A stretch of 64,000 nt of DNA from an uncultured Saprospiraceae bacterium (lineage in GTDB: Bacteria; Bacteroidota; Bacteroidia; Chitinophagales; Saprospiraceae), in contig CALJKQ010000064.1 of the NCBI GenBank assembly GCA_937973565.1, forward strand, positions 3,671-67,670, in the 5' to 3' direction. The translations under genes were made by a program, and so were the position numbers. Position 1 is the stretch's first letter. Each line of letters opens with the position of its first letter. The notes beneath the pieces are model-generated. The model searched no databases, was not told the origin of the DNA, and was given only the letters and a program-made list of their open reading frames with translations. This document shows positions 51,133 to 64,000 of this stretch, piece by piece.

Positions 51133-51573
51133 TCACCGACCTCTATTGCGCGCCTTATTGATGATGTTGGACATGATCTCCTGGCGGAACTGTTTTTCAA
51201 CCCACAACAGGCGGGCTACTTTTTTGGCAGGAAGGAAAACTTTGAATTTTTCCACATACCGTCGCTCCAGCTGGATTTCTTTTTCCCGGATCTCAAAATG
51301 ACGGGCAATGTAGGCTTGGGCGTCTTTGTCGGACTCATCCCCTTCAAAATCAGATTTTTTTTCAGCCATCAATGCCGCACGTTCTGCTTCCATCTGGTTG
51401 TAGACGGGCCAGAACTTTTCAGATTCTTCAGGCGATAAGCCCAGCTTTTCGGTTATGAAGGCAATCTTCAGGGATTTGATCCGCTCTTCCAATGCTTCTC
51501 TTTTTTTGCCTATCTGTCCGAAGGCAAGTCCGGAGATCAACAATAAACTAAAAATAATAAAGGTCTTTTTCAT
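51133..51573 (-). CDS. periplasmic Spy/CpxP-like helical protein (ECF-associated)
   Basis: I start at MKKTFIIFSLLLISGLAFGQ. Helical, charged, with LGLSPEESEKFWPVYNQ (LTxxQ-like). Last gene of the sigma/anti-sigma operon. Confidence 0.6.
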   Translation of the reverse strand: MKKTFIIFSLLLISGLAFGQIGKKREALEERIKSLKIAFITEKLGLSPEESEKFWPVYNQMEAERAALMAEKKSDFEGDESDKDAQAYIARHFEIREKEIQLERRYVEKFKVFLPAKKVARLLWVEKQFRQEIMSNIINKARNRGR

Positions 51574-51596
51574 TATACTAAAACTAAAAATAAACA

Positions 51597-52169
51597 CTAC
51601 ATAATCTCATTAAGGTACTCAATTTCTTCATCGGTGAGGATGTCCTGCAACAGGGGTTCTTCGCTGTCCAGTCCTTCGATTTCCGGCAGACTGTTGTGGT
51701 CAACCGGTTCGAGTTGTTTCAGCAGCCAGAGGTCTTCTTCGGAATTATAATTTTGGAGCAGGTGGTTGACTTCTTCACTGGTGAGACTTTGGTTAAATTC
51801 TTTGCTCAGTGCTGCATAGGCATGCTCACTGTTGGTTTCATTGCCTGCGGGCAAAACAAATTTCAGCATCACCACGGCTACAATGACCAGCACGGCTGCT
51901 GCCGCCATCCAGCGAATGTTGCGCATAAGCACGACCCTGCCACCACCACCTTGTGCGCCCTTCGCGTTGGCCAACACCCAATCAGGCAGGCTGTCGAAAT
52001 AACCTACGGGCACACCGGCTTTGGTTTGAGCAGGCAAGCTACGCTCCAGTTGGATTTGTGCCATTACCTGATCTTGCATGGCATCAAAATACCCGGCGGG
52101 AGGATCCCCATGTGGTGATACTTTTTTCAGTTTTTCCAGCTCTTGGCTCAGTTTTTCTTTCTCTTCCAT
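51597..52169 (-). CDS. putative anti-sigma factor (single-pass membrane protein)
   Basis: 190 aa with one TM (WMAAAAVLVIVAVVMLKFVL). Sits directly downstream of the ECF sigma gene. Confidence 0.55.
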   Translation of the reverse strand: MEEKEKLSQELEKLKKVSPHGDPPAGYFDAMQDQVMAQIQLERSLPAQTKAGVPVGYFDSLPDWVLANAKGAQGGGGRVVLMRNIRWMAAAAVLVIVAVVMLKFVLPAGNETNSEHAYAALSKEFNQSLTSEEVNHLLQNYNSEEDLWLLKQLEPVDHNSLPEIEGLDSEEPLLQDILTDEEIEYLNEIM

Positions 52170-52180
52170 TTCTCTTTCTT

Positions 52181-52720
52181 TTAAGCCAGCAAATAGGCTT
52201 CAATTTTTTTCACTGCGTGGTGGTACGAGGCTTTGAGCGCACCTACGGAAGTGTCGAGTATATCTGACATTTCCTGGTAACTCATTTCATCGTAGTACCG
52301 CATATTAAAAACGATTCTCTGTTTTTCCGGCAGCTCCTCCAGCGCGTGTTTGAGCTTTTGAACGGCCTTTTCTTCATCGAAGTCATGGTCGGCCTGATCG
52401 GTGCTACCTACCTGAAATTCTTCGAGCGATTGTGTGGCCTTCTGTCGTTGGTTTTTTTTCAGGGTAAGTGCCTCATTGGTGGCTATGCGGTACAACCACG
52501 TGTATAAGCTCGAACGACCTTCAAAGTTGGCAAATCCACGGTAGGCCTTAACGAAAGTATTTTGCAATACGTCATCAGTGTCTTCGTGGTTTTCTACAAT
52601 CCTGCGGATGTGCCAGTAAACTTTTTCCTGGTACTTGTGCATGAGCAACCTGAAACCCTGCTCGAGGGTGGCGGCGTTTCGTAGCATTTCTACGATGGTG
52701 TCGTCATCAGCTTGCTGCAT
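52181..52720 (-). CDS. ECF-type RNA polymerase sigma-70 family factor
   Basis: I start at MQQADDDTIVEML. Region 2 DDVLQNTFVKAYRGFANFEGRSSLYTWLYRIATNEAL. Region 4 MSYQEMSDILDTSVGALKASYHHAVKKI. Confidence 0.88.
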   Translation of the reverse strand: MQQADDDTIVEMLRNAATLEQGFRLLMHKYQEKVYWHIRRIVENHEDTDDVLQNTFVKAYRGFANFEGRSSLYTWLYRIATNEALTLKKNQRQKATQSLEEFQVGSTDQADHDFDEEKAVQKLKHALEELPEKQRIVFNMRYYDEMSYQEMSDILDTSVGALKASYHHAVKKIEAYLLA

Positions 52721-52771
52721 ATTCCTATTGAATTGTAATGGTTTGACACCAATTTCACCCAAAGGTTTAAT

Positions 52772-53689
52772 CTAAACAGGGCGGGTGTCATTGAGTTTTT
52801 CGATGAACAACAGGGTCTTTTCCTCTTTGCTTTCGTACATGGGCAAAAATATGGCATTTTCCTGCACATTATCAATGCAGTACGAATGATTTTTATATAT
52901 AAATTGATTGTAGGTATCGTCGTATCCACGCACCATTACCAACAATTCGGCGGTCTGTTCACGCAATTCTTCCAAACTTTTGTAGAAAAAGGGACTCTTA
53001 TCATTGATCACATGGATAAGGGTCCAGTTGAGTGGAAAGAGATAGATAAATTCCAGTTCCAGTTCCAGTCGCTTAAACTTCCTGCGGCGCTGGCCTTCCA
53101 CTTCTTCCAGCCAGGTCATGTTGATGGATGCCTCCATATTGATCAGTGTATTGGCTCCTGCATTGACCAGGCGAAGTTGAAGGGACCGTTCATCACCATA
53201 GGGTGCAAGCACTACTTTATCAGCAAACTTGATTTTAACGGGGGCTTTTGAAAAGCGAAAAATCAAGAGACCTGTACCCAATGCATAACAGGTAAGTCCA
53301 ATCAATGAATTAAACGAAGAAACCACATTGGTAAAATGATCCTGTGGATTGAGGTAACCATAACCCACCGTGGTAAATGTCTGGATACTGAAATAATAAC
53401 AGTGCATAAAGTCCTCCCAGTTCCCGAGCACCTTTCCATTGAGTTTATCGATACCATGGATATAATACAAAAGAGCAAACAACCCATTGAGCAGTAAAAA
53501 GATGCCGATCAACTCCAGAATAAATGTATGCCACGGCACATTGACCAGGTGTTCAAAGGGCTTGGTACCTTCGCCACCAACCCGCTCGATGTTGAAGCTG
53601 CCGTCTTCATTGACTAGCCTCGCCCTGGCCGATACCTTGTTGGTAAAGCCAATATTGGCGCCCACCGGACCCTGGTGTTTATCTGTCAT
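52772..53689 (-). CDS. KirBac-type inward-rectifier potassium channel
   Basis: 305 aa. Two TM helices flank the pore helix plus selectivity filter FSIQTFTTVGYGY. A C-terminal cytoplasmic beta-rich domain is typical of IRK/KirBac. Confidence 0.85.
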   Translation of the reverse strand: MTDKHQGPVGANIGFTNKVSARARLVNEDGSFNIERVGGEGTKPFEHLVNVPWHTFILELIGIFLLLNGLFALLYYIHGIDKLNGKVLGNWEDFMHCYYFSIQTFTTVGYGYLNPQDHFTNVVSSFNSLIGLTCYALGTGLLIFRFSKAPVKIKFADKVVLAPYGDERSLQLRLVNAGANTLINMEASINMTWLEEVEGQRRRKFKRLELELEFIYLFPLNWTLIHVINDKSPFFYKSLEELREQTAELLVMVRGYDDTYNQFIYKNHSYCIDNVQENAIFLPMYESKEEKTLLFIEKLNDTRPV

Positions 53690-54110: not shown

Positions 54111-55376
54111 ATGAAGATCTCATTTTTTCAACAAATAATACAAAAGCACTATAACCATTTTGATGAGGATGAAAGACGGAATGTTACCATCTTCCTCATC
54201 CTGGAGTTGATGATGATTTTTGTAATTGGTTCATGGGGCTTTGGCTTTGCATATTTGGAAATGTGGGAGATGTTTTGGCTGGTCATCTTTACCTGGATCG
54301 GGTATGTACTTTTGTTTATAGGTACTGCTTTTTGGGGTCTTCCTTTCCATTTCGGGCGATCCGTTGCCTTGCTATTGGCCTTGGTTATAACCGGTCTTCC
54401 TCCGATATTTTATGGCATGGATACGATGATCACGGTGCATTTGGTTTTCGTACCCCTGGCTACCATTCTCTTGTTTTCAAGGAAGGAGAAAAAGCAATTT
54501 TTTATTTATCTGGGTTTGGTCTTTTTGGCGTTTATTTCTGTAGTTGCCTGGAATTCACTTTATGACCCTGTCTTCCAGGTACCTGCCCACACATTTAGAA
54601 TATTCAATACGGTTGTGACTTTGGATAGCATGTTTATTTCCATGTATTTTGCCTATTTCTTTTTTACCCAAAACAATGAGTTCAAAGATATGTTAGCGAC
54701 AGAAAGAGAAAAATCTGACCGCTTGTTGTTGAGTCTGTTTCCGGATTCCATCGCCGGAAAATTGCGTGACAGCAACCAATCCATAGCAGACAGTTTTGAC
54801 AATGTGACCATACTTTTTGCCGATATTGTAGGCTTCACAAGATATGCTAGTAACATGACACCTAATGAATTGGTGGCCATGTTGGATGAAATATTTAGCG
54901 AATTTGACGCATTGGCGGATAAATACGGTGTCGAAAAAATCAAAACAATAGGAGATTCTTATCTGGCAGTGGGAGGCCTTCCCTTGCCGGACGAAAATCA
55001 TTGCAGGAACATAGCTGAAATGGCCTTGGAAATGAACCGGGTTATAAAAGAGAAATACACTACAAAGTACAAGCTCACACTGCGCATGGGCATCCATACA
55101 GGCCATGCAGTGGCAGGGGTCATTGGAAATAAAAAATTTGCTTATGACATTTGGGGCGATTGCGTAAACATTGCCAGTCGTTTTGAATCCAATGGCCATC
55201 CGGAAAAAATCCATATTACAGAAGATGTAAAAAACACGTTGGGTGATGGCTATGTCTTCGAGGATTGCGGCCAAATCGATATCAAAGGAAAAGGTCTGAT
55301 GCATTCCTTCTTTTTATTGGGACGGAAGGGTGAAGTGTCTCCGATAACGGCCCAACGTTTAGGCAGCTTAAATTAG
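54111..55376 (+). CDS. membrane-anchored class III adenylate/guanylate cyclase
   Basis: I start at the ATG at 54111 (MKISFFQQ...). About 6 TM helices, then NVTILFADIVGFTRY, KIKTIGDSYLAVGG and FAYDIWGDCVNIASRFES. Confidence 0.9.
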   Translation: MKISFFQQIIQKHYNHFDEDERRNVTIFLILELMMIFVIGSWGFGFAYLEMWEMFWLVIFTWIGYVLLFIGTAFWGLPFHFGRSVALLLALVITGLPPIFYGMDTMITVHLVFVPLATILLFSRKEKKQFFIYLGLVFLAFISVVAWNSLYDPVFQVPAHTFRIFNTVVTLDSMFISMYFAYFFFTQNNEFKDMLATEREKSDRLLLSLFPDSIAGKLRDSNQSIADSFDNVTILFADIVGFTRYASNMTPNELVAMLDEIFSEFDALADKYGVEKIKTIGDSYLAVGGLPLPDENHCRNIAEMALEMNRVIKEKYTTKYKLTLRMGIHTGHAVAGVIGNKKFAYDIWGDCVNIASRFESNGHPEKIHITEDVKNTLGDGYVFEDCGQIDIKGKGLMHSFFLLGRKGEVSPITAQRLGSLN

Positions 55377-55560
55377 TAAATGGTTTTAAATGTGGGTTCT
55401 GCAAAAATATTGGCAAATAACGAAGTATGAGTTTAGTTTTATGCCTGCTAAATTGTATTACTGCTTTTAACTCCTTTCGAATGATAGCCAAGAACCTGGA
55501 GAAGAGTTGTCAATATTGATTACTTTTAAAATTAATCTTTACTTTATTATAAAAAACCTT

Positions 55561-57426
55561 ATGTCAAACACAGTTGTCCCACATAAAAATGAGTTTCATC
55601 AAAAGCTACTTCGTGAAAATCTGAATAAAATATTTGGTGATTTTGATGAGGCTATTTTAGGTGAAATAGAAGATCAATTGATATGGATAGAACTGGATGG
55701 TGGCAAAACCATTATCAGGGAAGGCGATGCCGGCGATTCGTTGTTTTTTGTGCTCAGCGGCAGATTGGTAGCCACTAAAAAAGACAGAGAAAACAATGAG
55801 TATAAGATAGGAGATGTCGTTCGCGGAGAAATGGTTGGCGAGATGTCGATTTTTACAGGAGAGGCACGTTACGCAACGGTGACAGCGATTAGGGATAGTG
55901 TTTTGGTTCAGCTGCCCAAAGCGCTATTTGAAAAAATAATCCGGAAGTATCCGGATGTTGGCTTAAATGTAACCAAACTTATCATAGATCGGGTTAAGAA
56001 ATCAAATAAGGCGCAAAAAAGTCATATAAACAACATTTGTTTTTACCCCATTCACGATTCTGTAAACTGCACAAAGCTAGTACAACCATTATTTGACTAC
56101 TGTAACCCGGGCATAAACATTTGCCACATAAATAAAGAAGTCTTGGTGCAAAATGGCTTCAATGTGGATCAGAACAAGGCTGAAGAAGATAAAAACACGA
56201 ACAGAGCCCTCATCAAATGGCTGAATGATATAGAGTCAATGCATGAGTTTATATTTTTTGAGTGTGAAAACAGGCCCGGCCCCTGGAACGACAAATTTCT
56301 CAGACAAGCAGATCACATCGTTTTGTTGGCAGATAGCACAAAGAGTTATGTGCCCACAGACATGGAAGAAATATTGGGTAAGATTAAAAATGTCCAATTT
56401 TCAATGGTCTTTATACATCCGGCCAATACTGAAATGCCGGAAAAAACCAGAAACTGGCTGGATGCACGACCTCAGATCAGAAGTCATTACCATCTGAGGT
56501 TGGGTCATGAAAAGGACTTGCAAAGACTGGGTAGGTTACTAACCGGCAGAGCCACAGGTCTCGTATTAGCGGGTGGTGGAGCCAAAGGGTTTGCTCACAT
56601 CGGAGTGATGCGGGCAATGGCTGAATATGGGATTCCCATTGACTACCTCGGGGGTACAAGTGTAGGATCTATGATGGCAGCCAGTTTTGCATTTGACAGA
56701 TCCATCGATGAAGTTGAAAAGACCATACGCGAAGCCACCGAGTACAAGCCTTCTTCTGACCTGAGTTTTATACCTCTTATTTCGCTGGTTAAAGGAATGA
56801 ATATAAAAAGGATGGTCGGTTTTACCATTAAAAAACTTAGTGGCATACATCATGTTGACCTGGCCGATACATGGATACCTATGTATATTGTGGCCTCCAA
56901 TTATACACGATCTGATGAAACCGTTTTTTTTAGGGGAAGTATGTCGAAGACATTGTTGGCTTCTGCAGCAATACCCGGTGTTTATCCCCCGGTTATAATC
57001 GATGGAGAATTGTATGTAGATGGTGGCACATTCAACAATTTTCCGGCAGATATTATGCGTAACCTGGAAATGAGCAAAGTGATTGGCATTGATTTCATGA
57101 TTGAAAAAAACCATACACTTACCATCGATGAAATGCCATCCAACAACCAGGTGTTCAGAGGTAAATTATTGGGCAAAAAGGATAACAAACACAAATTGCC
57201 CGGCATTGGATCCATCATTATTAACTCTACCCTGATGTACAGCAACGCCAAAAGGCACGAATCCATTGCTTATCTTGATTTGCACTTCAATCCGGATGTA
57301 GCCAAATTCGGTCTGACTGCCTGGACTGATTTCCACAAGATTGTTGAAAAAGGATATCAACATGCCAAACAGGTTTTGGAAGGTATGAGTCGTGAAGATT
57401 TGGCCAAATTTCAAAACCCAATTTGA
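55561..57426 (+). CDS. cyclic-nucleotide-binding domain fused to patatin-like phospholipase
   Basis: I start at the ATG at 55561 (MSNTVVPHK...). CNB phosphate-binding cassette GEMSIFTGEARYATVTA. Patatin GLVLAGGGAKGFAHIGV, GxSxG = GTSVG, catalytic YVDGGTFNNFP. Confidence 0.9.
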   Translation: MSNTVVPHKNEFHQKLLRENLNKIFGDFDEAILGEIEDQLIWIELDGGKTIIREGDAGDSLFFVLSGRLVATKKDRENNEYKIGDVVRGEMVGEMSIFTGEARYATVTAIRDSVLVQLPKALFEKIIRKYPDVGLNVTKLIIDRVKKSNKAQKSHINNICFYPIHDSVNCTKLVQPLFDYCNPGINICHINKEVLVQNGFNVDQNKAEEDKNTNRALIKWLNDIESMHEFIFFECENRPGPWNDKFLRQADHIVLLADSTKSYVPTDMEEILGKIKNVQFSMVFIHPANTEMPEKTRNWLDARPQIRSHYHLRLGHEKDLQRLGRLLTGRATGLVLAGGGAKGFAHIGVMRAMAEYGIPIDYLGGTSVGSMMAASFAFDRSIDEVEKTIREATEYKPSSDLSFIPLISLVKGMNIKRMVGFTIKKLSGIHHVDLADTWIPMYIVASNYTRSDETVFFRGSMSKTLLASAAIPGVYPPVIIDGELYVDGGTFNNFPADIMRNLEMSKVIGIDFMIEKNHTLTIDEMPSNNQVFRGKLLGKKDNKHKLPGIGSIIINSTLMYSNAKRHESIAYLDLHFNPDVAKFGLTAWTDFHKIVEKGYQHAKQVLEGMSREDLAKFQNPI

Positions 57427-57455
57427 GGAAATGTCCCATTAAAGTATTTTGAAGC

Positions 57456-58064
57456 ATGAATATTGATATTACAAACCTGGACAATTTCGACACCATTTTC
57501 AATGAGATGATGATTGAGGTTTTGGGAGCAATGGAAAATACGCTGCCAGCATATCTCACTTATCATAGTGTTGAGCATACACGCGGAGTTTTAAATGACG
57601 CTATCCATATAGCAAACATGGAGGTTGTATCCGAAATCGATTTGAAAAAAATCAAAATTGCGGCTTTATTTCACGATACAGGATTTATGTTTACCTATAA
57701 AGACCATGAGGAAGCAAGCTGTGATTATGCCCATAAAATCCTGCCAGGGTACCAAATAAGTGATGAAGATATAATACATATCAATGAAATGATTATGGCC
57801 ACCAAAATTCCCCAAACACCCAAAGATCATTGCGGAAAAATATTGGCGGATGCTGACTTAGCCTACCTGGGTACTGGTAGTTTTGAAAAGATTTCATCTC
57901 TATTATTCAGTGAGCTGAAACACTTCAACCCATTACTGAATGTAGCAAGTTGGAATGAAATTCAAATTAAATTTTTAAAACAACACCAATATTTTACAGC
58001 ATATTGTGTTACTGAGAAATCAGCTATAAAGGATGCCCACTTACTGCGTTTGATAAAGGGGTAA
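57456..58064 (+). CDS. HD-superfamily metal-dependent phosphohydrolase
   Basis: H...HD...D pattern: YHSVEHTRGV, AALFHDTGF, LADADLAYLG. Lies 30 bp downstream of the patatin gene. Confidence 0.8.
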   Translation: MNIDITNLDNFDTIFNEMMIEVLGAMENTLPAYLTYHSVEHTRGVLNDAIHIANMEVVSEIDLKKIKIAALFHDTGFMFTYKDHEEASCDYAHKILPGYQISDEDIIHINEMIMATKIPQTPKDHCGKILADADLAYLGTGSFEKISSLLFSELKHFNPLLNVASWNEIQIKFLKQHQYFTAYCVTEKSAIKDAHLLRLIKG

Positions 58065-58074
58065 AAAGCATCAC

Positions 58075-58192
58075 CATAAAGTGCACAAGGAACACACAAA
58101 GTTCACAAATGAGGCGATGTGAAAAGTAGTGTCCTTAGTGCCACCTCTGTGACCTTAGTGGTAAAAAAAGATCACCACTAACTCATTTTACA
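58075..58192. repeat. REP/MITE-like imperfect inverted repeat in the intergenic gap
   Basis: The left arm caccataaagtgcacaaggaacacacaaag resembles the reverse complement of the right arm ccttagtgccacctctgtgaccttagtggt. A terminal hairpin ttagtggt-(11 nt)-accactaa is present. atcaccataaa / atcaccactaa recur at both ends. Confidence 0.45.
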
Positions 58193-58194
58193 AC

Positions 58195-58743
58195 CTATTT
58201 TTGTTGAGGCTTCCATAGAGAATAAGTGAGATTTATAACAAAAATCAACTGTGAAGTTAAAAAGATAAATAGACAGATAAAAATAAAAAGGTCAGCGTAT
58301 TGGCTTTTATACATGTTAGCTTCTTTGTAATAGTGGCCCTGACCAGATACAAAAAATATTATCAACAACAAGGTTGCCACAGAAATCCAGGCATGGACAG
58401 CACTTAACCCTTTGTTGAAGCTTCGTTTCATAACGGTTGGGATGAGATAATATGCCAGGGTACATAGTCCCAATATCAAAGCCACAGCCATATACAAATG
58501 AAAGGTAGCTATAACCAAATAAGTATCATGCCATTGAAGATCAAATAAGGCACTTCCCGACCATATAGTATTTATACTGGCCAACAAAATCGTTGAGAGA
58601 AAACCGATGGCAAATAAGCGGGTACCTGGGTTTGAAGATAGGTTTGTGTATTGGGTGATGATATATTTGGAAAAAAGAATGGCAGCAGTAAAGATGCAAA
58701 TATAAATTAGAAGGGAATACAGATGGGGCGGAGCAGCATTCAT
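58195..58743 (-). CDS. 5-TM membrane protein resembling the C-terminal helices of haem-copper oxidase subunit I
   Basis: FDLQWHDTYLVIATFHLYMAV aligns with the CoxI helix-X motif LHDTYYVVAHFHYVL. The downstream SAVHAWISV resembles AKIHFAIMF. Confidence 0.65.
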   Translation of the reverse strand: MNAAPPHLYSLLIYICIFTAAILFSKYIITQYTNLSSNPGTRLFAIGFLSTILLASINTIWSGSALFDLQWHDTYLVIATFHLYMAVALILGLCTLAYYLIPTVMKRSFNKGLSAVHAWISVATLLLIIFFVSGQGHYYKEANMYKSQYADLFIFICLFIFLTSQLIFVINLTYSLWKPQQK

Positions 58744-58884
58744 GACTTTTTTAATTTTAAGTAAATTTACAACTTATTTTATTATGAAATGGAATTTAGC
58801 ATATGATATCTAAAGCTGCTGAATGTAGATGGAATACTTAATTAGTAAATTTCTTAAAAGACAGAGCTCGAATAAATTTTTATT

Positions 58885-58917
58885 AAAGTAAGCAGCCTTC
58901 CACAGGCTGCTTACTTT
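58885..58917. terminator. strong hairpin downstream of the lipoprotein gene
   Basis: Perfect 13-bp stem aaagtaagcagcc / ggctgcttacttt with the 7-nt loop ttccaca. Lies 31 bp past the stop at 58948. There is no long U-run on either strand. Confidence 0.5.
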
Positions 58918-58947
58918 ATGCTACAGATTCTTCCTTTAGTGGAAAAT

Positions 58948-59430
58948 TTAATCCCTGCGTTTTAATTCGATTTCCTTTTCATCCAGGGTCTTACTGTTGA
59001 AATCCACGGATTCTTTCACCAACAATCTGGCTTTGATTACAGATGGATAGTTGGTAAATTGAGATGTGTTATCAAAAAGTACCCAGGTAACCGTAGGAGA
59101 GTTGTTAATTGAACATTCAATATTAAATCCAATGAATAGTAGATTATTAGAATAATTAATTGAGCCTACACTGCCCAGCAAATCTTTTTTAATGGGATTT
59201 AAAGTATTGATATAATATGGTTTTATCAGAGTCTTTGAATTATCTATTCCAACTAAAATAGACTTATCCAAACAATGAAAATTGACATCGGTTTCATAAA
59301 AAGTATAACTATCCTTTTTAATGCAGTCAATTTCTCCGTATGGAATTTCATCAGCGCTGCAGTTGACATCATTTTGATCACAGCAGGCAAGGACACAGAG
59401 AGAAACAGGAAGTATGATTAGCCATTTCAT
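58948..59430 (-). CDS. hypothetical lipoprotein, translationally coupled to the upstream T9SS cargo gene
   Basis: Lipobox MKWLIILPVSLCVLAC. Its ATG overlaps the upstream stop (ATGA at 59427-59430). No recognisable domain. Confidence 0.7.
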   Translation of the reverse strand: MKWLIILPVSLCVLACCDQNDVNCSADEIPYGEIDCIKKDSYTFYETDVNFHCLDKSILVGIDNSKTLIKPYYINTLNPIKKDLLGSVGSINYSNNLLFIGFNIECSINNSPTVTWVLFDNTSQFTNYPSVIKARLLVKESVDFNSKTLDEKEIELKRRD

Positions 59431-61658
59431 TGTTTAATAATTTTATTCCAGAAGTTATTGCCATTACTATCAGTGAGCAGAACCACATACATACCTTTCA
59501 CCAAATTGGGTAATGCAACACTAAAATACTGATATTCAAACGAATCCACTAGCGTTTGGTCCAAAATCTTTGTTCCTTTAAGATCATATATTTTTATTGC
59601 ATATATTTTTGTGTCTTCATTCAATACAATGTTGAGTTCATTTGCTGTTAATGGATTCGGATATATTTTGATGCTATTTTTATCAGCTCTGCTGAGAAGG
59701 ATAGACTCATTTCTGTTTTTTAAACCGATACTATCTCTGATAATATCATTTAGCAAAGATATTTCAGATACGTTAATCTGTTTATTTCTTATTTTGGTAA
59801 CATCAGGATTGGGACCACACCCAATCAAAGCTACACAATCACTCATACATTTTATTTTTACATCACAACAATTGGTTGTTTCAAACGCTCCTGGCCATGG
59901 TCCAAATGAACCGATAAAGGATCCTGTTAAAAGTTTCATGGTAGCAAGTCCAAAAGGAGGGTCATCAAAAACTACAGACCAGTTGGATTCACTGGTATTA
60001 TTGGGTTCATCCACAGGGGGTAGATCCTCTGTGGATGCATCAAGACTGCCTAAAGTATAGGCCCCGATTTTTTCACACTCACAGTATGCTGGCACTTCTC
60101 CTTCCTCGTTGGGAATTGTATTTAATACGGTTGCCAAATAAAAATCAGAATTAATTTGGGCAATGGCTTCTCCATGGTTGACAACTTTACCCCCAAATGT
60201 TGCATTTGATACTAAGGTAAACTTCAATTCATCTCCGGGAGCTATTTCATATCTTTTCTGACCATGAAACAAGGTGTAATCATCCAGGTTTAATTCACCG
60301 CACAGACTTTCAGCGAAAGTGCTGTTGTAAAAAGCAACTGCTGAAGTGGCTGCTGCGAAAATATTGGCGGTTGTGGCGCTTCCAATAGCCGTGCTAATGG
60401 CATCAACAAGTGTATTGGCACTTGTCAATGCACCATCAATGGTTGGGTCATCTTCAGGTACATCACATTTTGCCATGAATTTTTTTTCACCGTGAATAAT
60501 TGTGTCCTGAAGCACGCCATTTTTATTTACAAACATCATAGCCCAATCTTCAATGGAAATCCAAGCCGATTGCTGACACAAGACACAGGAATAGGTTTGA
60601 GCCGTTAAGAAGGTCTTTGAATAATAGCCATACTCAGTTTCAATTTGTTTATTGCAGGCTTTGCAGTTTTCAAGATTGGGACTAATGGTTGCCGGGTCAA
60701 CACAGACAAGTCTGTACCTTATGGTGCTCCAGCCTTGATGTAAAGACGTTTTAAAATTGTTGGGAGAACTGTCTACGCCATCATAGAACATGTGCATTCT
60801 TCCCGCTTTAGCAGCACCAATTCTGCCTTGTGAAAAAATAAAATCATTATCTTCAGGTTTAGTATCAAAATTTTGTGCAAAAACGTCTGCATCATAATTC
60901 ATGCAATCTTCCTCTTCATTGAAATTGGGTATGCCTTGTACATTTAAAGCGCTGTCTTTGGTTCTTATCAACTTACATAGGCAATCACCGGTTGGGCTGC
61001 CTCCGGGATTAAAATTGTTGTGGAATTCTGTAAACAAGGCACACATATTTTGAAGCCAGGTGTCGTTGGCTACTGTGGTAGAAGTAAAGTTTGAGCCAAC
61101 CACTTGATTATATCTGCTGACCATATCACAAATTTGTTGTGTTGTTAGTTTTAAAAATTTTTGAAAAAATGCAAATAGCTCGACTTTACTCACTTTCTTG
61201 CCACACCAAAAGGTATATAAAGAAGATTTGGTTTTTGTGTATTCATCAATGTACTTGTAGAGACGCTCAGTAACATTAACCATGCTGTCATCTTTGGTGT
61301 TGATTCTAACGATTTTTGTAGTTATTCTTCCTGAAGAATCGTAAATTTTAACTTCAAATTCAAGTGTGTTGTTGGATGGGCTTAAGTCAAATATTTCTGT
61401 TTCATTGTTTTCTATTTGTACTCTGGTAGTTTGGATAATTTGATTTAGAGTAGTTACGTCTATTCTTGTTATCCTGGTTGTGGACTCTGATAAAGTATCT
61501 TGATAGAATTTTAAATAAGTGGCTGTTTTACCATTGCACATATCCAACAGCATGTATTCATAATTGACTTTGATTGGTTTTTCCGCATGAAGCCAATTGA
61601 TACTCAGAAAAATGAAAAATAGAAGGAGTAGCGTTTTGATTTTTTTCATCTTAAACAA
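59427..61658 (-). CDS. orphan Cys-rich secreted protein with T9SS C-terminal sorting domain
   Basis: Signal peptide (MKKIKTLLLLFFIFLSINWLHA). The C-terminal ~80 aa, KIYPNPLTANELNIVL...LPNLVKGMYVVLLTDSNGNNFWNKIIKQ, matches the type A T9SS CTD pattern. I recognise nothing in the rest. Confidence 0.8.
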   Translation of the reverse strand: MFKMKKIKTLLLLFFIFLSINWLHAEKPIKVNYEYMLLDMCNGKTATYLKFYQDTLSESTTRITRIDVTTLNQIIQTTRVQIENNETEIFDLSPSNNTLEFEVKIYDSSGRITTKIVRINTKDDSMVNVTERLYKYIDEYTKTKSSLYTFWCGKKVSKVELFAFFQKFLKLTTQQICDMVSRYNQVVGSNFTSTTVANDTWLQNMCALFTEFHNNFNPGGSPTGDCLCKLIRTKDSALNVQGIPNFNEEEDCMNYDADVFAQNFDTKPEDNDFIFSQGRIGAAKAGRMHMFYDGVDSSPNNFKTSLHQGWSTIRYRLVCVDPATISPNLENCKACNKQIETEYGYYSKTFLTAQTYSCVLCQQSAWISIEDWAMMFVNKNGVLQDTIIHGEKKFMAKCDVPEDDPTIDGALTSANTLVDAISTAIGSATTANIFAAATSAVAFYNSTFAESLCGELNLDDYTLFHGQKRYEIAPGDELKFTLVSNATFGGKVVNHGEAIAQINSDFYLATVLNTIPNEEGEVPAYCECEKIGAYTLGSLDASTEDLPPVDEPNNTSESNWSVVFDDPPFGLATMKLLTGSFIGSFGPWPGAFETTNCCDVKIKCMSDCVALIGCGPNPDVTKIRNKQINVSEISLLNDIIRDSIGLKNRNESILLSRADKNSIKIYPNPLTANELNIVLNEDTKIYAIKIYDLKGTKILDQTLVDSFEYQYFSVALPNLVKGMYVVLLTDSNGNNFWNKIIKQ

Positions 61659-62395
61659 CTTTTAAATAGCTAAAGGTTTCTCAGACACCAGTTTAAAATC
61701 ATTTTTTCATGATGTAGGGCCGAGTCTGCAGTTTAATGCCCGGGACGCCAAAATTCATTTAATTTCCACTTATTTTCATTTCTTTTCCCAATAAGCTTAG
61801 TATATTAAATTTCTGATGGTAATTTTTAAAAATGAAAAACTCAATCACGAAGCTGTAATTACAGCCTATGATTAAAAAATGAGATACAGCAATTCTGACT
61901 AAGAACCACTAAATTAATTCTGACTTACTGTTTATTTTCTGTGAGTATGCGTTTTCGATTTCATAGCTGAGTTCCTTTCTAATTCAAATATAGTATTAAT
62001 TATTTATAACAGAAAATTTATTTTATAAAAATATGTTAAAATTTATATAATGTACAAAACATAATGTAAATAAATATTACTTCATCATGTGTCGATCTAC
62101 ATTATTCAAATTGATTAAGGCAGCCAACAATCTAATTATAAATAAAACCCACCATTCCGTTTTGAACATCCCATCTTAAAATATTTTTATGTAAAAGGCC
62201 ACCGCTCTAACAGGAGAAATAAAAACCGAAACTAATTCCAGGAAGGTACGAATTAAATTTTGATAATTCATTTAGCCATAGTTAAAATACACCACTACAC
62301 GATACTCAATTAGGTTGAGCCATCTTTTTGAATTTTATTTAACATTATAATTTTTAATAATTCCAACGTTCCATAAGCCAAAAGTATCCTTGGAA

Positions 62396-62881
62396 CTACG
62401 GATTCACCTTCCAGATTTTATCTGAATAGGGCAGGTATTCCGGCAAGGCTGCAGATCCAAACCAGGTTAGCAATTCATAGCCTAGCAAACAATTTTTTAT
62501 AGCGGGATCCGTTTGCAGCAGGGCATGGGCTTCCTCGGGTGTATTGAGCTTGTTCAGAATAAAAATCCCTCTGTATTGTAGTTCGTTTTTTGCCAGTGGT
62601 CCGGCCACAATGAGTTTGCCCTCCTCCACCAGTCGGTGAATATTGGACATATGACCTTTGAAATACTCATTTGTTTCTTCTTTGGTGGCCGAGGTATTTG
62701 AACCTGTTTTCAGGATTACCAGAAAATAGGATTTCATGCCGTAATCATTGGCACCCAATTTTTCGGCCAGGGCTTTATCGTAATTGGGATTGGCAATTGG
62801 GGTCGTTGTCTCTGATTGTGCCACAAGAAAATGCAGGGAAAAGCAAAAAACAAGCGTCAAAAGATTTTTCATTACTATCAT
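62396..62881 (-). CDS. secreted YciI-like (DGPF) domain protein
   Basis: Signal MKNLLTLVFCFSLHFLVAQ. YFLVILKTGSN...GHMSNIHRLVEEGKLIVAGPL...GIFIL...EEAHALLQTDPAI follows the YciI-family pattern. Confidence 0.6.
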   Translation of the reverse strand: MIVMKNLLTLVFCFSLHFLVAQSETTTPIANPNYDKALAEKLGANDYGMKSYFLVILKTGSNTSATKEETNEYFKGHMSNIHRLVEEGKLIVAGPLAKNELQYRGIFILNKLNTPEEAHALLQTDPAIKNCLLGYELLTWFGSAALPEYLPYSDKIWKVNP

Positions 62882-63088
62882 TAAATATTGGTTTATAAAA
62901 TGCTATGCATTAAAGGTATACATTTCCTTATTTCCTGATAAAATTACCACAAAATTATTATGACCAGGCTTTCCTGGATGATTGTTTGCCTTACCTTAAA
63001 AACATTGTATTTTTCATTTTTCTTGACGGCATAAAATATTTATTTTCAAGTAAATATGTATTTGTATATTTGATACACTTACTTTATA

Positions 63089-63345
63089 ATGAGAGCCTAT
63101 TGCATCAGCCTGTTTTTGGTGACTTAGTGTTATACCCTGGCCGGGGCTCAGTCATATCGTTTATTTACCATGCGGGATGGCCTTTCTCAGATGAAAATAA
63201 CCTCTTTGCATCTCGATAAACGCGGCTATCTTTGGATAGGCACTCGCAATGGTCTCAATAAGTTTGATGGTGAAAAATTGAGGTCTATATCGAAAATGAG
63301 GGCTTATTGCAAAATAGGATGTATGACATTGACAAAGACCGGATG
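63089..63345 (+). pseudogene. decayed N-terminal remnant of a two-component 'regulator propeller' (Reg_prop/Y_Y_Y) sensor
   Basis: ATG at 63089 gives the signal peptide MRAYCISLFLVT, then an in-frame TAG at 63125. The same frame continues CYTLAGAQSYRLFTMRDGLSQMKITSLHLDKRGYLWIGTRNGLNKFDGEK. The homologous sequence (IEVYIENEGLLQNRMYDIDKD) continues only after a -1 shift at the A5 run 63273-63277, and similarity is then lost. Confidence 0.7.
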
Positions 63346-63566
63346 GCTATTCTTTTCATTCTTACTTATTATGTATTATTGATGGGTCTAATTTTGCTTT
63401 CTAGTTTGGTCCTTATGCCAGCGTGTTCTTTGATCTGAATGTTGCCGAGGAAGGATAATGTATGGAATTGTGAGCATTATATCAACAGGGCTTTGTATGC
63501 ATTATATGAGGGTAAACAAATATTTTATGGATTCAAAAAAAGTCCAGTAAAAAAAATTTACGTACT

Positions 63567-64000
63567 TCAAATTTTTAGAAACCAGCCTGCTTTCGATTGA
63601 GTTTTCAGTATGTATAGCCCTGGAGCAAGTGAAGTAACATCTATTCGGACACAGGCTTTTGAGCTCTTATATAGAAGCATCCCACTGGCATTGTATATTT
63701 CATAACCATCGTAAGTACTGACTTCAAGAATCCCATGGGTCGGATTGGGATAGATGGAATGTGAAATCTCATTTTCCACATCTTTCGTTTCTGTTGTGCT
63801 TTTACATCCCATAAATCCCACCACATTGTCCCATAAATTGCAGGCTTCGGTCCGGATACCACATTGGTTGCCATCAGGATCATCGTTTATTTCAAGGTAA
63901 CAATCATCGTTGCTTTGGTATGGATTCCATACTTCGAGTCCAACGCCATTGGGATTGCCGGTCTTCGCAAAATTGACCCAGTAATTCAGCATGTTATATT
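63567..64000 (-). CDS. C-terminal part of a carboxylesterase-type (type B) hydrolase with T9SS sorting domain; 5' end beyond window
   Basis: YWVNFAKTGNPNG is the conserved C-terminal carboxylesterase motif. The tail SIYPNPTHGILEVS...LAPGLYILKTQSKAGWFLKI is a T9SS CTD. The frame is open to the window edge. Confidence 0.75.
   Translation of the reverse strand, partial: YNMLNYWVNFAKTGNPNGVGLEVWNPYQSNDDCYLEINDDPDGNQCGIRTEACNLWDNVVGFMGCKSTTETKDVENEISHSIYPNPTHGILEVSTYDGYEIYNASGMLLYKSSKACVRIDVTSLAPGLYILKTQSKAGWFLKI

Follow-up and report, generated by a model that had tools for sequence, protein, structure and literature searches.

A cyclase, NTE-family lipase and HD hydrolase gene cassette in Saprospiraceae points to cAMP-controlled membrane lipid turnover

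RESULTS

Gene organization of the locus

The window analyzed here, a stretch of 64,000 nucleotides from a contig of an uncultured Saprospiraceae bacterium, contains three adjacent genes encoding a predicted membrane cyclase, a lipase with a cyclic nucleotide-binding (CNB) domain, and an HD-superfamily hydrolase. Their features are as follows (window coordinates).

54111..55376, + strand: predicted membrane class IIIa adenylyl cyclase, 421 aa, six-transmembrane (6TM) N terminus plus catalytic domain (ORF, PF00211)
54180..54671, + strand: six predicted TM helices of the cyclase, residues about 24-187 (hydropathy scan)
54789..55319, + strand: cyclase catalytic domain with full hexad (motif positions, AC8 C1/C2 alignment)
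55377..55560, + strand: cyclase-lipase spacer, 184 nt
55561..57426, + strand: bacterial NTE-family protein, 621 aa (Pfam domains)
55690..55950, + strand: CNB domain (PF00027, E = 2e-20)
55837-55887, + strand: phosphate-binding cassette (G93, E94, R103, A105), motif GEMSIFTGEARYATVTA
56191..56517, + strand: NTE_Ploop domain (PF24179, 63.4 bits against a cutoff of 27)
56560..57054, + strand: patatin domain (PF01734, E = 2e-30)
56572-56589, + strand: oxyanion hole GGGAKG, residues 338-343
56653-56667, + strand: nucleophile GTSVG, residues 365-369
57019-57027, + strand: catalytic Asp in DGG, residues 487-489
57456..58064, + strand: HD-superfamily metal-dependent phosphohydrolase, 202 aa, candidate cAMP phosphodiesterase (PF01966)

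An earlier note on this DNA had described three co-directional genes in a row and quoted motifs from two of them. This description is borne out: the ORF listing gives all three genes on the + strand at these positions, PF00211, PF00027, PF01734 and PF01966 each match the expected protein, and every quoted motif is found in the cyclase and lipase sequences. In six contigs of this species, from metagenomes or genomes, the independently called genes have identical starts and encode proteins of 421, 621, and 202 aa. The HD gene follows closely 3' of the lipase gene, as had been reported, with a gap of 29 nt (57427-57455). The cyclase and lipase genes are 184 nt apart, compared with 20 to 70 nt in other lineages; this spacer has no terminator-like site on the + strand and no Rfam match, and it leaves room for separate transcription of the two genes. 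The neighbors (rpsT, ahcY, an ECF sigma factor gene, and a K+ channel gene) are all of the housekeeping type, and the gene context is unchanged across six samples of the species.

A class IIIa cyclase with an ATP-type active site

Residues 227 to 403 of the cyclase match PF00211 (Guanylate_cyc) with an E value of 3e-59 and 200 bits. Six hydrophobic segments (residues 25-41, 54-70, 84-100, 106-122, 130-146, and 168-184) lie N-terminal to this domain and fall within the phmmer match (residues 16-411, E = 5.5e-60) to the 6TM mycobacterial cyclase Cya (Rv1625c; 7yzi), which is among the best solved relatives together with mammalian AC8, AC9, and AC5 (E values of 1e-62 to 1e-67). The motifs FADIVGFT (236-243), KTIGD (278-282), YDIWGD (345-350), and NIASR (353-357), which are also seen in the alignment to AC8 C1/C2, supply the complete hexad: D238 and D282 for metal binding, K278 and D346 for ATP specificity, and N353 and R357 for the transition state. 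The ATP-type pattern previously proposed is thus present in sequence, and cAMP is the probable product. The same D-K-D-D-N-R hexad is common to all Bacteroidota cyclases linked to NTE or HD genes.

Like Rv1625c and the mammalian membrane cyclases, the protein has six TM helices followed by a class IIIa catalytic domain of similar length and carries all six catalytic residues on a single chain. It differs from Rv1625c in that it comes from another phylum and shares an operon with a CNB effector. A further difference is that, in three other genomes, paralogues of this 6TM cyclase are found directly upstream of genes for AlkB-like membrane hydroxylases, a hint that the family may cooperate with enzymes that act on the hydrocarbon chains or lipids of membranes.

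A bacterial member of the NTE family

The lipase consists of a CNB domain (PF00027, residues 44-130), the NTE P-loop-like domain (PF24179, 211-319), a patatin domain (PF01734, 334-498), and a conserved C-terminal helical region; no TM segment was found in it. The NTE_Ploop domain, which the earlier note did not mention, is present in 120 of 120 homologues among the matches listed. Because it carries this domain, the lipase is a member of the NTE family rather than an ad hoc fusion, and close homologues are named "NTE family protein" by JGI. In agreement with the claim of an intact phosphate-binding cassette, the contact residues of GEMSIFTGEARYATVTA (residues 93-109) are kept in nearly all members of a set of 94 relatives that spans several phyla (G in 94, E in 93, R in 93, and A in 90). 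The patatin catalytic elements are all retained, as had been stated: none of the 94 relatives has a substitution at the glycines of GGGxxG, at G365/S367/G369, or at D487/G488, and position 342 is K or R. Foldseek searches with the AF2 model (mean pLDDT, 81.6) place the patatin part closest to PlpD (TMt, 0.83) and the CNB part closest to cAMP-bound CRP/GlxR. We consider it probable, but inferential, that the CNB domain binds cAMP, and the same holds for the direction of regulation and the lipid substrate.

The family comprises at least 500 species and 2,847 clusters at 50% identity. Its tree sets Bacteroidota apart from other phyla, identity drops with taxonomic distance, and inheritance looks mostly vertical. 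Of 72,556 plasmids, 13 carry a full-length relative, and each of these is 0.65 to 2.8 Mb in size (megaplasmids or chromids); the phage records contain none.

[quoted passage not shown] The eukaryotic proteins (NTE/PNPLA6-PNPLA7, Drosophila Swiss-cheese, and yeast Nte1) share with the Saprospiraceae lipase the combination of cNMP-binding, NTE_Ploop, and patatin domains as well as the Ser-Asp dyad and oxyanion hole. They have three CNB domains, whereas the present protein has one (bacterial relatives of about 750 aa have two), and the bacterial protein is half as large, has no TM anchor at its N terminus, and has a cyclase gene as its neighbor. Eukaryotic NTEs are not known to have a cyclase partner of their own, nor are their CNB domains known to bind cAMP.

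The HD hydrolase

The third protein matches PF01966 (E = 9e-6; 26.4 bits against a cutoff of 22) and has the motifs H37-x3-H41, H73-D74, H84-E85, and D132-x-D134. Alignment of the family shows H41, H84-E85, K117, Q120, D132, W166, Q170, and H177 to be invariant, and the AF2 model has a pLDDT of 95.9. By both sequence profile and fold, the nearest solved relatives are uncharacterized HD hydrolases (2pq7 and Lin1889) and the NTP pyrophosphohydrolase YpgQ, followed by the catalytic domains of class I phosphodiesterases (PDEs). The latter are abundant among the fold matches (TM, 0.6 to 0.67), as expected for any HD-fold protein, and neither the HDxxH signature of class I PDEs nor an HD-GYP motif was found in the sequence. 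With the YpgQ-like hydrolases (5dqv/5dqw, 2pq7, and 3b57) the protein shares a single HD domain of about 200 aa and the H...HD...D metal site, but it is only 13 to 22% identical to them (E values of 1e-7 to 1e-3; TM, 0.59 to 0.70), and its family has its own invariant residues and its own gene context of cyclases, CNB proteins, and YitT.

The commonest neighbor of HD-family genes is a YitT/DUF2179 membrane protein gene, not a cyclase gene; among the 80 HD loci examined, about 50 consist of a YitT-HD pair and lack a nearby cyclase. Nevertheless, a cyclase lies within 4 kb at 9 of 64 non-trio HD loci versus 1.6 expected. HD relatives are found beside a cyclase without a lipase (two loci), beside 1,080-aa HEAT-CNB proteins (seven loci), and adjoining TPR- or response-regulator cyclases. 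The catalytic residues are all common to YitT-linked and cyclase-linked forms, and the split between cNMP-linked and YitT-linked forms in the HD tree has a bootstrap value of only 35%. The HD protein may plausibly act as a cAMP eraser: gene context points that way, while similarity does not.

Co-conservation of the three genes

Our analysis shows that the three genes are conserved together, in line with the module that the earlier note had proposed: they are tightly spaced, their order is shuffled, and their synteny extends to proteins only about 42% identical. The order cyclase-lipase-HD is found in other Saprospiraceae (ten loci) and, at 42 to 43% lipase identity, in Persicitalea and another Cytophagales metagenome-assembled genome (MAG) (three loci). 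Flectobacillus rivi, Flectobacillus major DSM 103, and Arcicella have the order cyclase-HD-lipase, and another Saprospiraceae MAG has a convergent cyclase-lipase pair. The three genes adjoin one another in no fewer than four separate lineages and in two different orders, which indicates that their adjacency is beyond chance. Cyclases occur within 3 kb of NTE genes 14 times versus 2.3 expected from far flanks (a rough Poisson P of 1.5e-7 that ignores kinship).

The partner cyclases have at least three kinds of N-terminal modules: 6TM, MASE7, and a signal peptide followed by about 300 aa and a TM segment. The TM part of the present cyclase has no recognizable sequence similarity to the MASE7-type partner in the convergent pair. 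Varied N termini combined with a constant ATP-type hexad are the pattern of a signaling module whose inputs can be exchanged. Proteobacterial NTE relatives are found independently beside response-regulator cyclases, a CHASE2-cyclase, and a cyclase-STAND protein, and Saccharospirillum has one beside a cyclase and a CRP-family regulator. However, most NTE relatives, including nearly all proteobacterial ones and those of Larkinella, Nibrella, and Phaeodactylibacter, have neither a cyclase nor an HD gene within 8 kb; thus, the link is not obligatory. The flanks of the trio differ between genera but are housekeeping or metabolic in every lineage examined. We found no paper that describes such a cyclase-NTE-HD operon.

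DISCUSSION

Three other explanations were weighed. The earlier note had likened the genes to the Pycsar and CBASS antiphage systems. In an abortive-infection system of this kind, infection would trigger synthesis of a cyclic nucleotide by the cyclase, the CNB-patatin protein would degrade the membrane and kill the cell, and the HD protein would limit background signal. The logic of producer, CNB effector, and hydrolase is indeed the same, and Pycsar likewise sets a class III-fold cyclase beside an effector with a CNB sensor. PADLOC returns matches to PycC (48 bits), the CNB part of PycTIR (60 bits), and CapV-type phospholipases (27 bits); CapV, the nucleotide-activated patatin output of type I CBASS, is a structural neighbor of the patatin domain (TMt, 0.55 to 0.60); a WYL-domain regulator adjoins the trio in Flectobacillus rivi; and flanking genes, as noted, vary by genus. 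However, PlpD is closer than CapV, which lacks a CNB sensor, and no CD-NTase is present. The cyclase scores far higher with canonical PF00211 than with the best PycC model and aligns over its full length with membrane cyclases; it is purine (ATP) type with a membrane sensor domain, the N termini of its counterparts are ordinary environmental sensors, and the effector carries patatin and NTE_Ploop rather than TIR or TM domains. The lipase reaches only 33.6 bits with NCBIfam CBASS_lipase (cutoff, 200) and 22 bits with an antiphage phospholipase model (cutoff, 400). Since PADLOC and NCBIfam matches are at domain level only and the differing flanks are housekeeping, membership in Pycsar or CBASS is not supported. 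No defence genes were seen in the flanks examined, the locus is invariant within the species, and full-length members of the large, apparently mostly vertically inherited NTE family are absent from phage records and, among plasmids, occur only on megaplasmids. We therefore regard an immune role as very improbable.

It is just as improbable that three unrelated housekeeping genes were kept together by happenstance. Most NTE genes do lack these neighbors, most HD genes pair with YitT, and a single ancestral arrangement within Bacteroidota could have given the trio; yet across Saprospiraceae and Cytophagales the trio persists down to about 40% protein identity even though all flanks change, its order is shuffled without dispersal, the cyclase sensor module is exchanged, Proteobacteria have independent cyclase-NTE adjacencies, and a cyclase and a CNB domain encoded side by side match directly in function. 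A less likely but serious alternative to cAMP hydrolysis is that cyclase and lipase are coupled while the HD protein is a YpgQ-like nucleotide pyrophosphohydrolase or acts at a step after the lipase, perhaps on products such as glycerophosphodiesters or other phosphoesters. Its nearest solved relatives, the missing PDE signatures, and the many YitT-HD pairs favor this, and the catalytic residues shared by both HD forms suggest one common chemistry. A role on lipid products leaves unexplained the HD genes beside cyclases without a lipase, beside HEAT-CNB proteins, and beside TPR- or response-regulator cyclases; the frequent class I PDE fold matches also count against it, though these are expected for the fold.

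On balance, we think it probable that the genes form a chromosomal cAMP signaling cassette controlling a cytosolic NTE-type (lyso)phospholipase. The PNPLA6-like lipid remodeling that had been offered as the sober alternative is better supported than the immune framing. The cyclase would act, as does Rv1625c, as a homodimer whose two active sites are both complete, and a signal at its membrane domain would lead to cAMP synthesis. Binding of cAMP to the single N-terminal CNB domain may then alter the activity or membrane association of the Ser-Asp patatin esterase, which would deacylate membrane (lyso)phospholipids, and the presumably cotranscribed HD hydrolase would most likely hydrolyze cAMP and reset the switch. 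The role would be regulatory or housekeeping turnover of membrane lipids and not abortive infection. The cassette offers a simple system in which to ask whether NTE-type lipases truly are cyclic nucleotide receptors.

Organization of the three-gene locus

Three co-directional open reading frames (ORFs), as described in the earlier note, are real and occupy the following positions in the window.

54111-55376, + strand: cyclase ORF, 421 aa
55561-57426, + strand: ORF of a lipase of the neuropathy target esterase (NTE; PNPLA6-like) family, 621 aa
57456-58064, + strand: HD protein ORF, 202 aa

Independent gene calling places all three starts identically on six same-species contigs from different samples. 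The motifs that the note had quoted are all at their expected places, and the Pfam profiles PF00211, PF00027, PF01734, and PF01966 match the respective proteins. The gap between the lipase and HD genes is 29 nt, and that between the cyclase and lipase genes is 184 nt. Within the latter there is no Rfam match at E <= 0.1 and no + strand terminator-like site, and promoter-like matches are fewer than in shuffled sequences. A search upstream of the trio genes for the Bacteroidota-type TAnnTTTG motif found none.

In the window the trio lies among rpsT, ahcY, and genes for an ECF sigma factor, a Kir-type channel, SusC/D, a thiolase, and an adenine deaminase, a gene content that is identical in the six contigs. 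The Kir-type K+ channel gene (52772-53689, - strand; Ion_trans_2 plus IRK_C) is divergent and upstream of the cyclase gene; in an Aureispira-like lineage (locus L174) a bestrophin-type channel gene (7060-8058, - strand) has the same relative position, which may be a coincidence. Between ahcY and the K+ channel gene sits a group (51133-52762, - strand) consisting of an ECF-type sigma factor gene (Sigma70_r2/r4) and two small genes without a Pfam match (190 aa and 146-154 aa), whose position downstream of the sigma gene suggests that they could encode anti-sigma partners. On the other side of the trio, a stand-alone 182-aa ORF (58195-58743, - strand) is conserved in every contig of the species. 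It matches PF00115 (cytochrome oxidase subunit I; 46.9 bits) over positions 294-411 only and may be either a gene remnant or a CoxI-like membrane protein that has been truncated. The G+C content is 0.34-0.37 just downstream of the trio (58000-64000), compared with 0.40-0.47 upstream; the gene products of this downstream region include a 743-aa T9SS-sorted protein (Por_Secre_tail), and several of its ORFs have no Pfam match. A 140-aa ORF overlapping the cyclase start at L174 is lineage specific and absent from the window and was set aside.

A predicted class IIIa adenylyl cyclase

The cyclase matches nearly the full length of PF00211 (Guanylate_cyc; E 3e-59, 199.9 bits, cut-off 21.9). Its catalytic hexad is complete on one chain, with D238 and D282 for metal binding, K278 and D346 for ATP specificity, and N353 and R357 for the transition state, and in an alignment these residues occupy the same motifs as in the C1/C2 domains of AC8. 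Six hydrophobic segments (residues 25-184) precede the catalytic domain. Among solved structures, its nearest relatives are mammalian AC8, AC9, and AC5 and mycobacterial Cya/Rv1625c; phmmer aligns residues 16-411, the membrane part included, with the six-transmembrane (6TM) cyclase 7yzi (E 5.5e-60). Its sequence is that of a canonical class IIIa adenylyl cyclase of the homodimeric, Rv1625c-like kind, and the K/D pair predicts 3',5'-cAMP as its product.

Three other Saprospiraceae genomes encode full-length 6TM paralogues of this cyclase (57-67% identity), each followed after 23-200 nt by a PF00487 gene, at the following loci.

L177:6452-10528: cyclase paralogue and PF00487 gene
L178:8001-10502: cyclase paralogue and PF00487 gene
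L179:6001-8531: cyclase paralogue and PF00487 gene
L180:6001-8311: cyclase paralogue and PF00487 gene

The PF00487 protein is AlkB alkane-1-monooxygenase-like in a PDB search (8f6t, E 9e-65) and has no match in NCBIfam typing. In one of the genomes the arrangement occurs twice, at a distance of 14 kb, amid many genes for AraC-type regulators. With these AlkB-like neighbors, the 6TM cyclase family repeatedly has as its partner an enzyme that acts on membrane lipids or hydrocarbons. Work on Rv1625c and on mammalian cyclases has raised the idea that 6TM anchors respond to lipophilic ligands, and the pairing with AlkB-like genes fits this idea.

A bacterial short form of the NTE family

The combination of a cyclic-nucleotide-binding (CNB) domain with a patatin domain, described in the earlier note, is borne out in the lipase (PF00027, 72.9 bits, N-terminal to the esterase; PF01734, 106.6 bits), but an NTE_Ploop domain upstream of the patatin domain had been overlooked (PF24179, residues 211-319, 63.4 bits against a cut-off of 27). 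The patatin domain has GGGx[KR]G at 338-343, GxSxG at 365-369, and DG[GA] at 487-489. The phosphate-binding cassette of the CNB domain and the patatin catalytic elements are intact, as the note had it, and conserved in a set of 94 relatives drawn from several phyla: the cassette residues Gly, Glu, Arg, and Ala are found in 90-94 of them, and the oxyanion-hole glycines, the GxSxG Ser, and the DG Asp are invariant in all 94. In Foldseek comparisons the patatin part is closest to PlpD (TMt 0.83), followed by CapV (0.55-0.60); for the CNB part, cAMP-bound CRP/GlxR ranks first. No full-length solved relative was found. Eukaryotic NTE has an N-terminal transmembrane (TM) anchor and three CNB domains, whereas the window protein has one CNB domain and no hydrophobic segment. 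Thus, the window protein represents the NTE family in a short, bacterial form, in keeping with the JGI name of its homologues ("NTE family protein"), and with its catalytic residues intact it is a predicted (lyso)phospholipase.

The NTE family comprises 2847 cluster representatives (50% identity) at E <= 1e-30, and relatives are encoded in at least 500 GTDB species representatives. Many family representatives (among P0246-P0386) are 730-770 aa long and match the query in two stretches, which is why we assign them an extra N-terminal CNB domain; their sequences indicate that, besides the one-CNB form of the window, bacteria also have one with two CNB domains. The NTE cNMP sites have been said to "suggest" regulation by cyclic nucleotides (PMC9025805).

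Co-conservation of the trio

Co-conservation was assessed from three sources: the best 80 loci by NTE profile, in one genome per species, on which a tblastn census was run; the best 80 metagenome loci by HD profile; and annotated contexts. The synteny check proposed in the earlier note came out in favor of a conserved unit: the trio is co-conserved in Saprospiraceae and Cytophagales, in two gene orders. The order cyclase-NTE-HD is present in other Saprospiraceae (NTE 71-75% identical) and in Persicitalea and another Cytophagales metagenome-assembled genome (NTE 42-43% identical), and the order cyclase-HD-NTE is present in Flectobacillus rivi, Flectobacillus major DSM 103, and Arcicella. In one more Saprospiraceae metagenome-assembled genome, the NTE and cyclase genes form a convergent pair. 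Within the trios of other lineages the genes overlap or are separated by 20-70 nt. The N termini of the partner cyclases vary (6TM; MASE7; or a signal peptide, about 300 aa, and a TM segment, with no Pfam match in this last type except a weak, sub-threshold HNOBA in F. rivi), and the ATP-type hexad is kept by all of them. The flanking genes are metabolic or housekeeping genes that differ wholly between genera, such as those for cytochrome c assembly, bestrophin, and DUF1800; a hybrid sensor kinase, a TPP enzyme, and a heparinase; and a TonB receptor, short-chain dehydrogenases, and a deacetylase.

In a neighbor-joining tree of NTE proteins the Bacteroidota form one clade, in which trio-bearing genes are interleaved with lone ones (Larkinella, Nibrella, and Phaeodactylibacter). 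Proteobacterial NTE genes among the best 80 loci usually have neither a cyclase nor an HD neighbor; in several proteobacterial lineages a class III cyclase gene adjoins the NTE gene (response-regulator cyclases, CHASE2-cyclase, and cyclase-STAND). Cyclase genes lie within 3 kb of an NTE gene in 14 cases, against 2.3 expected from the far flanks (rough Poisson P of 1.5e-7, uncorrected for relatedness). Several of the proteobacterial partner cyclases have residues other than K/D at the two substrate-specificity positions (for example, E/G at locus L021), and therefore the messenger may differ in those organisms. In Saccharospirillum (L018:5968-7710, - strand, and L032), the gene of an NTE relative diverges from those of a soluble class III cyclase and a CRP-family (CNB plus HTH) regulator, the three forming a small cyclic-nucleotide gene cluster.

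The HD protein and its family

The third protein is an HD-superfamily phosphohydrolase, as indicated by an H...HD...D motif, a match to PF01966 just above threshold (26.4 bits, cut-off 22), and a confident, all-helical AlphaFold2 model (pLDDT 95.9) that matches HD-superfamily structures. Invariant residues in a 22-sequence alignment are H37, H41, H73-D74, H84-E85, K117, Q120, D132, D134, W166, Q170, and H177. A PDB profile search and Foldseek revealed no close characterized relative, the top matches being 2pq7, Lin1889, and YpgQ (profile E of 1e-7 to 1e-3, TM 0.59-0.70). Foldseek also aligns many catalytic domains of PDE5, PDE4, PDE2, and PDE10 (TMq 0.6-0.67, E of about 1e-2, root mean square deviation of 5-9 Å), with YpgQ-like proteins matching equally well or better. 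As to the substrate, the matches from both searches (YpgQ-like proteins, Cas10 HD, and class I PDEs) are weak and do not discriminate. The protein lacks the class I PDE signature HDxxH (it reads HDTGF, with no His at +4) and a GYP motif, and it matches HD-GYP entries weakly (4mcw, E 0.03; 5z7c, E 0.3).

The HD gene contexts come from the best 80 metagenome loci by HD profile. HD proteins at least 64% identical to that of the window are all found in the trio wherever the contig reaches far enough. At 44-53% identity, the main context is an apparently translationally coupled YitT/DUF2179-HD pair. The stop of the YitT_membrane plus DUF2179 gene overlaps or abuts the HD start (L087:5111-6600, L090:5108-6582, and about 50 of the loci L101-L173), and the pair is spread over Flavobacteriaceae, Algoriphagus, and many metagenome contigs; our literature searches found nothing on the function of YitT/DUF2179. 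At four Algoriphagus-type loci (L090:2827-3729, L118, L145, and L159), the YitT-HD pair is preceded, at a distance of about 2 kb, by a co-directional stand-alone patatin gene of 300 aa.

A link to cyclic nucleotides recurs in this family. A cyclase gene is directly upstream of the HD gene at two loci where the lipase is absent (L102 and L109); four YitT-HD loci (L105, L116, L155, and L156) have a TPR-cyclase gene 2.4-3.6 kb upstream of HD, in the opposite orientation; and response-regulator or TPR cyclase genes are directly downstream at three loci (L141, L149, and L157). Furthermore, genes for 1080-aa HEAT plus CNB proteins are convergent with the HD gene at L120-L124 and L167-L168. Those at L124:6590-9829 and L167:6632-9883 (both - strand) lie immediately downstream of the HD genes on metagenome contigs, and each product, of about 1080 aa, carries a C-terminal cNMP-binding domain as well as HEAT repeats. 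A cyclase gene lies within 4 kb in 9 of 64 dereplicated non-trio HD loci, against 1.6 expected (P of about 5e-5, uncorrected for relatedness). All cNMP-linked members fall on one side of a neighbor-joining tree of HD proteins with a bootstrap of only 69 of 200 replicates (35%), so a clean split between cNMP-linked and YitT-linked proteins is not relied on. Because the cyclic-nucleotide link persists without the lipase, a purely lipid-product role of the HD protein is argued against. Thus, from gene context, a cyclic-nucleotide role of the family is credible, and the HD protein is a candidate 3',5'-cNMP phosphodiesterase, supported by this context though short of proof.

Defense or lipid regulation

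The earlier note likened the trio to CBASS and Pycsar, and some matches to PADLOC models do point that way. They are at the domain level and sub-threshold: PycC matches part of the cyclase domain (48 bits, versus 200 bits to PF00211), a CapV-like match reaches 27 bits, and PycTIR models match only the CNB part of the lipase (residues 29-155, 60 bits). On this showing we reject membership in a defense system. Neither do the defining features agree, and none of the three proteins has those of Pycsar or CBASS. A Pycsar cyclase belongs to the PycC-type pyrimidine clade, whereas the window cyclase has the ATP-type K/D pair; a Pycsar effector joins CNB to a TIR or transmembrane killing domain, whereas the window effector has patatin as its output domain and lacks both a TIR domain and a TM segment. 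CBASS combines a CD-NTase signal generator with the cGAMP-activated phospholipase CapV. No CD-NTase (cGAS/DncV-like) is encoded among the locus neighbors, judged by the Pfam content of all locus genes, and against NCBIfam CBASS_lipase the lipase scores 33.6 bits (cut-off 200), outside the CapV type.

The surroundings are not those of a Pycsar-type defense island or mobile element, with housekeeping flanks, plasmid matches on megaplasmids only, and no full-length phage match. By tblastn, 13 of 72,556 plasmids carry a full-length NTE relative (27-28% identity), and each of these is a megaplasmid or chromid of 0.65-2.8 Mb. None of 50,697 phage records has such a relative, matches there being confined to the patatin domain; carriage of the lipase by mobile elements is thus unsupported. 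The variable island that the note proposed to look for left no sign, gene content being the same in six samples. Our literature searches found no CNB-patatin effector or system of the Pycsar type, and the effectors described in recent surveys are of the TIR and TM kinds only. Because of these domain-level matches, the housekeeping context, and the negative results on mobility and in the literature, we consider it very improbable that the trio is a defense system. This negative result matters, as a cyclase gene followed by a gene for a CNB-patatin protein is no evidence in itself of Pycsar/CBASS-type defense. As a separate observation, a gene for an HTH-WYL-WCX regulator is divergent and upstream of the trio in F. 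rivi (L009:4670-5614, - strand) and absent at the F. major locus (L176). WYL-type regulators often accompany defense systems.

Proposed mechanism and implications

Our analysis shows the architecture of the trio, its key residues, and its co-conservation. In the scheme we propose, the membrane cyclase would make cAMP, which would bind the CNB domain of the cytosolic NTE-type esterase; binding would change, in either direction, its (lyso)phospholipase activity on a lipid substrate or its recruitment to the membrane, and the co-transcribed HD protein would probably degrade cAMP. A further-reaching reading, tentative and in our estimate rather unlikely, is that the trio represents an ancestral, minimal form of NTE/PNPLA6 regulation, in which a lipid- or hydrocarbon-sensing 6TM cyclase would act through a cAMP-gated NTE lipase in a feedback on membrane composition, the signal being ended by a new stand-alone family of HD cAMP phosphodiesterases widespread in Bacteroidota.

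The NTE family, to which the lipase belongs, the class IIIa 6TM cyclases, and the HD superfamily are already known. What appears to be new is (i) a conserved operon joining an ATP-type cyclase, an NTE-type lipase, and an HD hydrolase and (ii) the context-based nomination of the HD family as a cAMP phosphodiesterase; our literature searches found no paper on either. In the literature found, the mycobacterial CNB-esterase proteins Rv2565 and Rv3728 are merely "hypothetical lipolytic enzymes."

The finding addresses the question of whether the CNB domains of NTE/PNPLA6, a human disease gene, respond to cyclic nucleotides. Because several lineages have a one-CNB bacterial NTE genetically linked to an ATP-type cyclase, the residues that contact the ligand are conserved throughout the family, and one carrier is cultured (the isolate F. 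major DSM 103), this question can be tested on soluble proteins of 620 aa. The small HD family, which recurs next to cyclases and CNB proteins, is a candidate new bacterial cAMP phosphodiesterase, and the presence of Rv1625c-like 6TM cyclases beside an NTE lipase or an AlkB-like hydroxylase bears on what membrane anchors sense. If the reading as ancestral NTE regulation were true, NTE-type CNB domains would be genuine cAMP receptors, the lipase would be a readable physiological output of the 6TM cyclase that would make candidate anchor ligands testable, and bacteria would gain a further class of cAMP phosphodiesterase.
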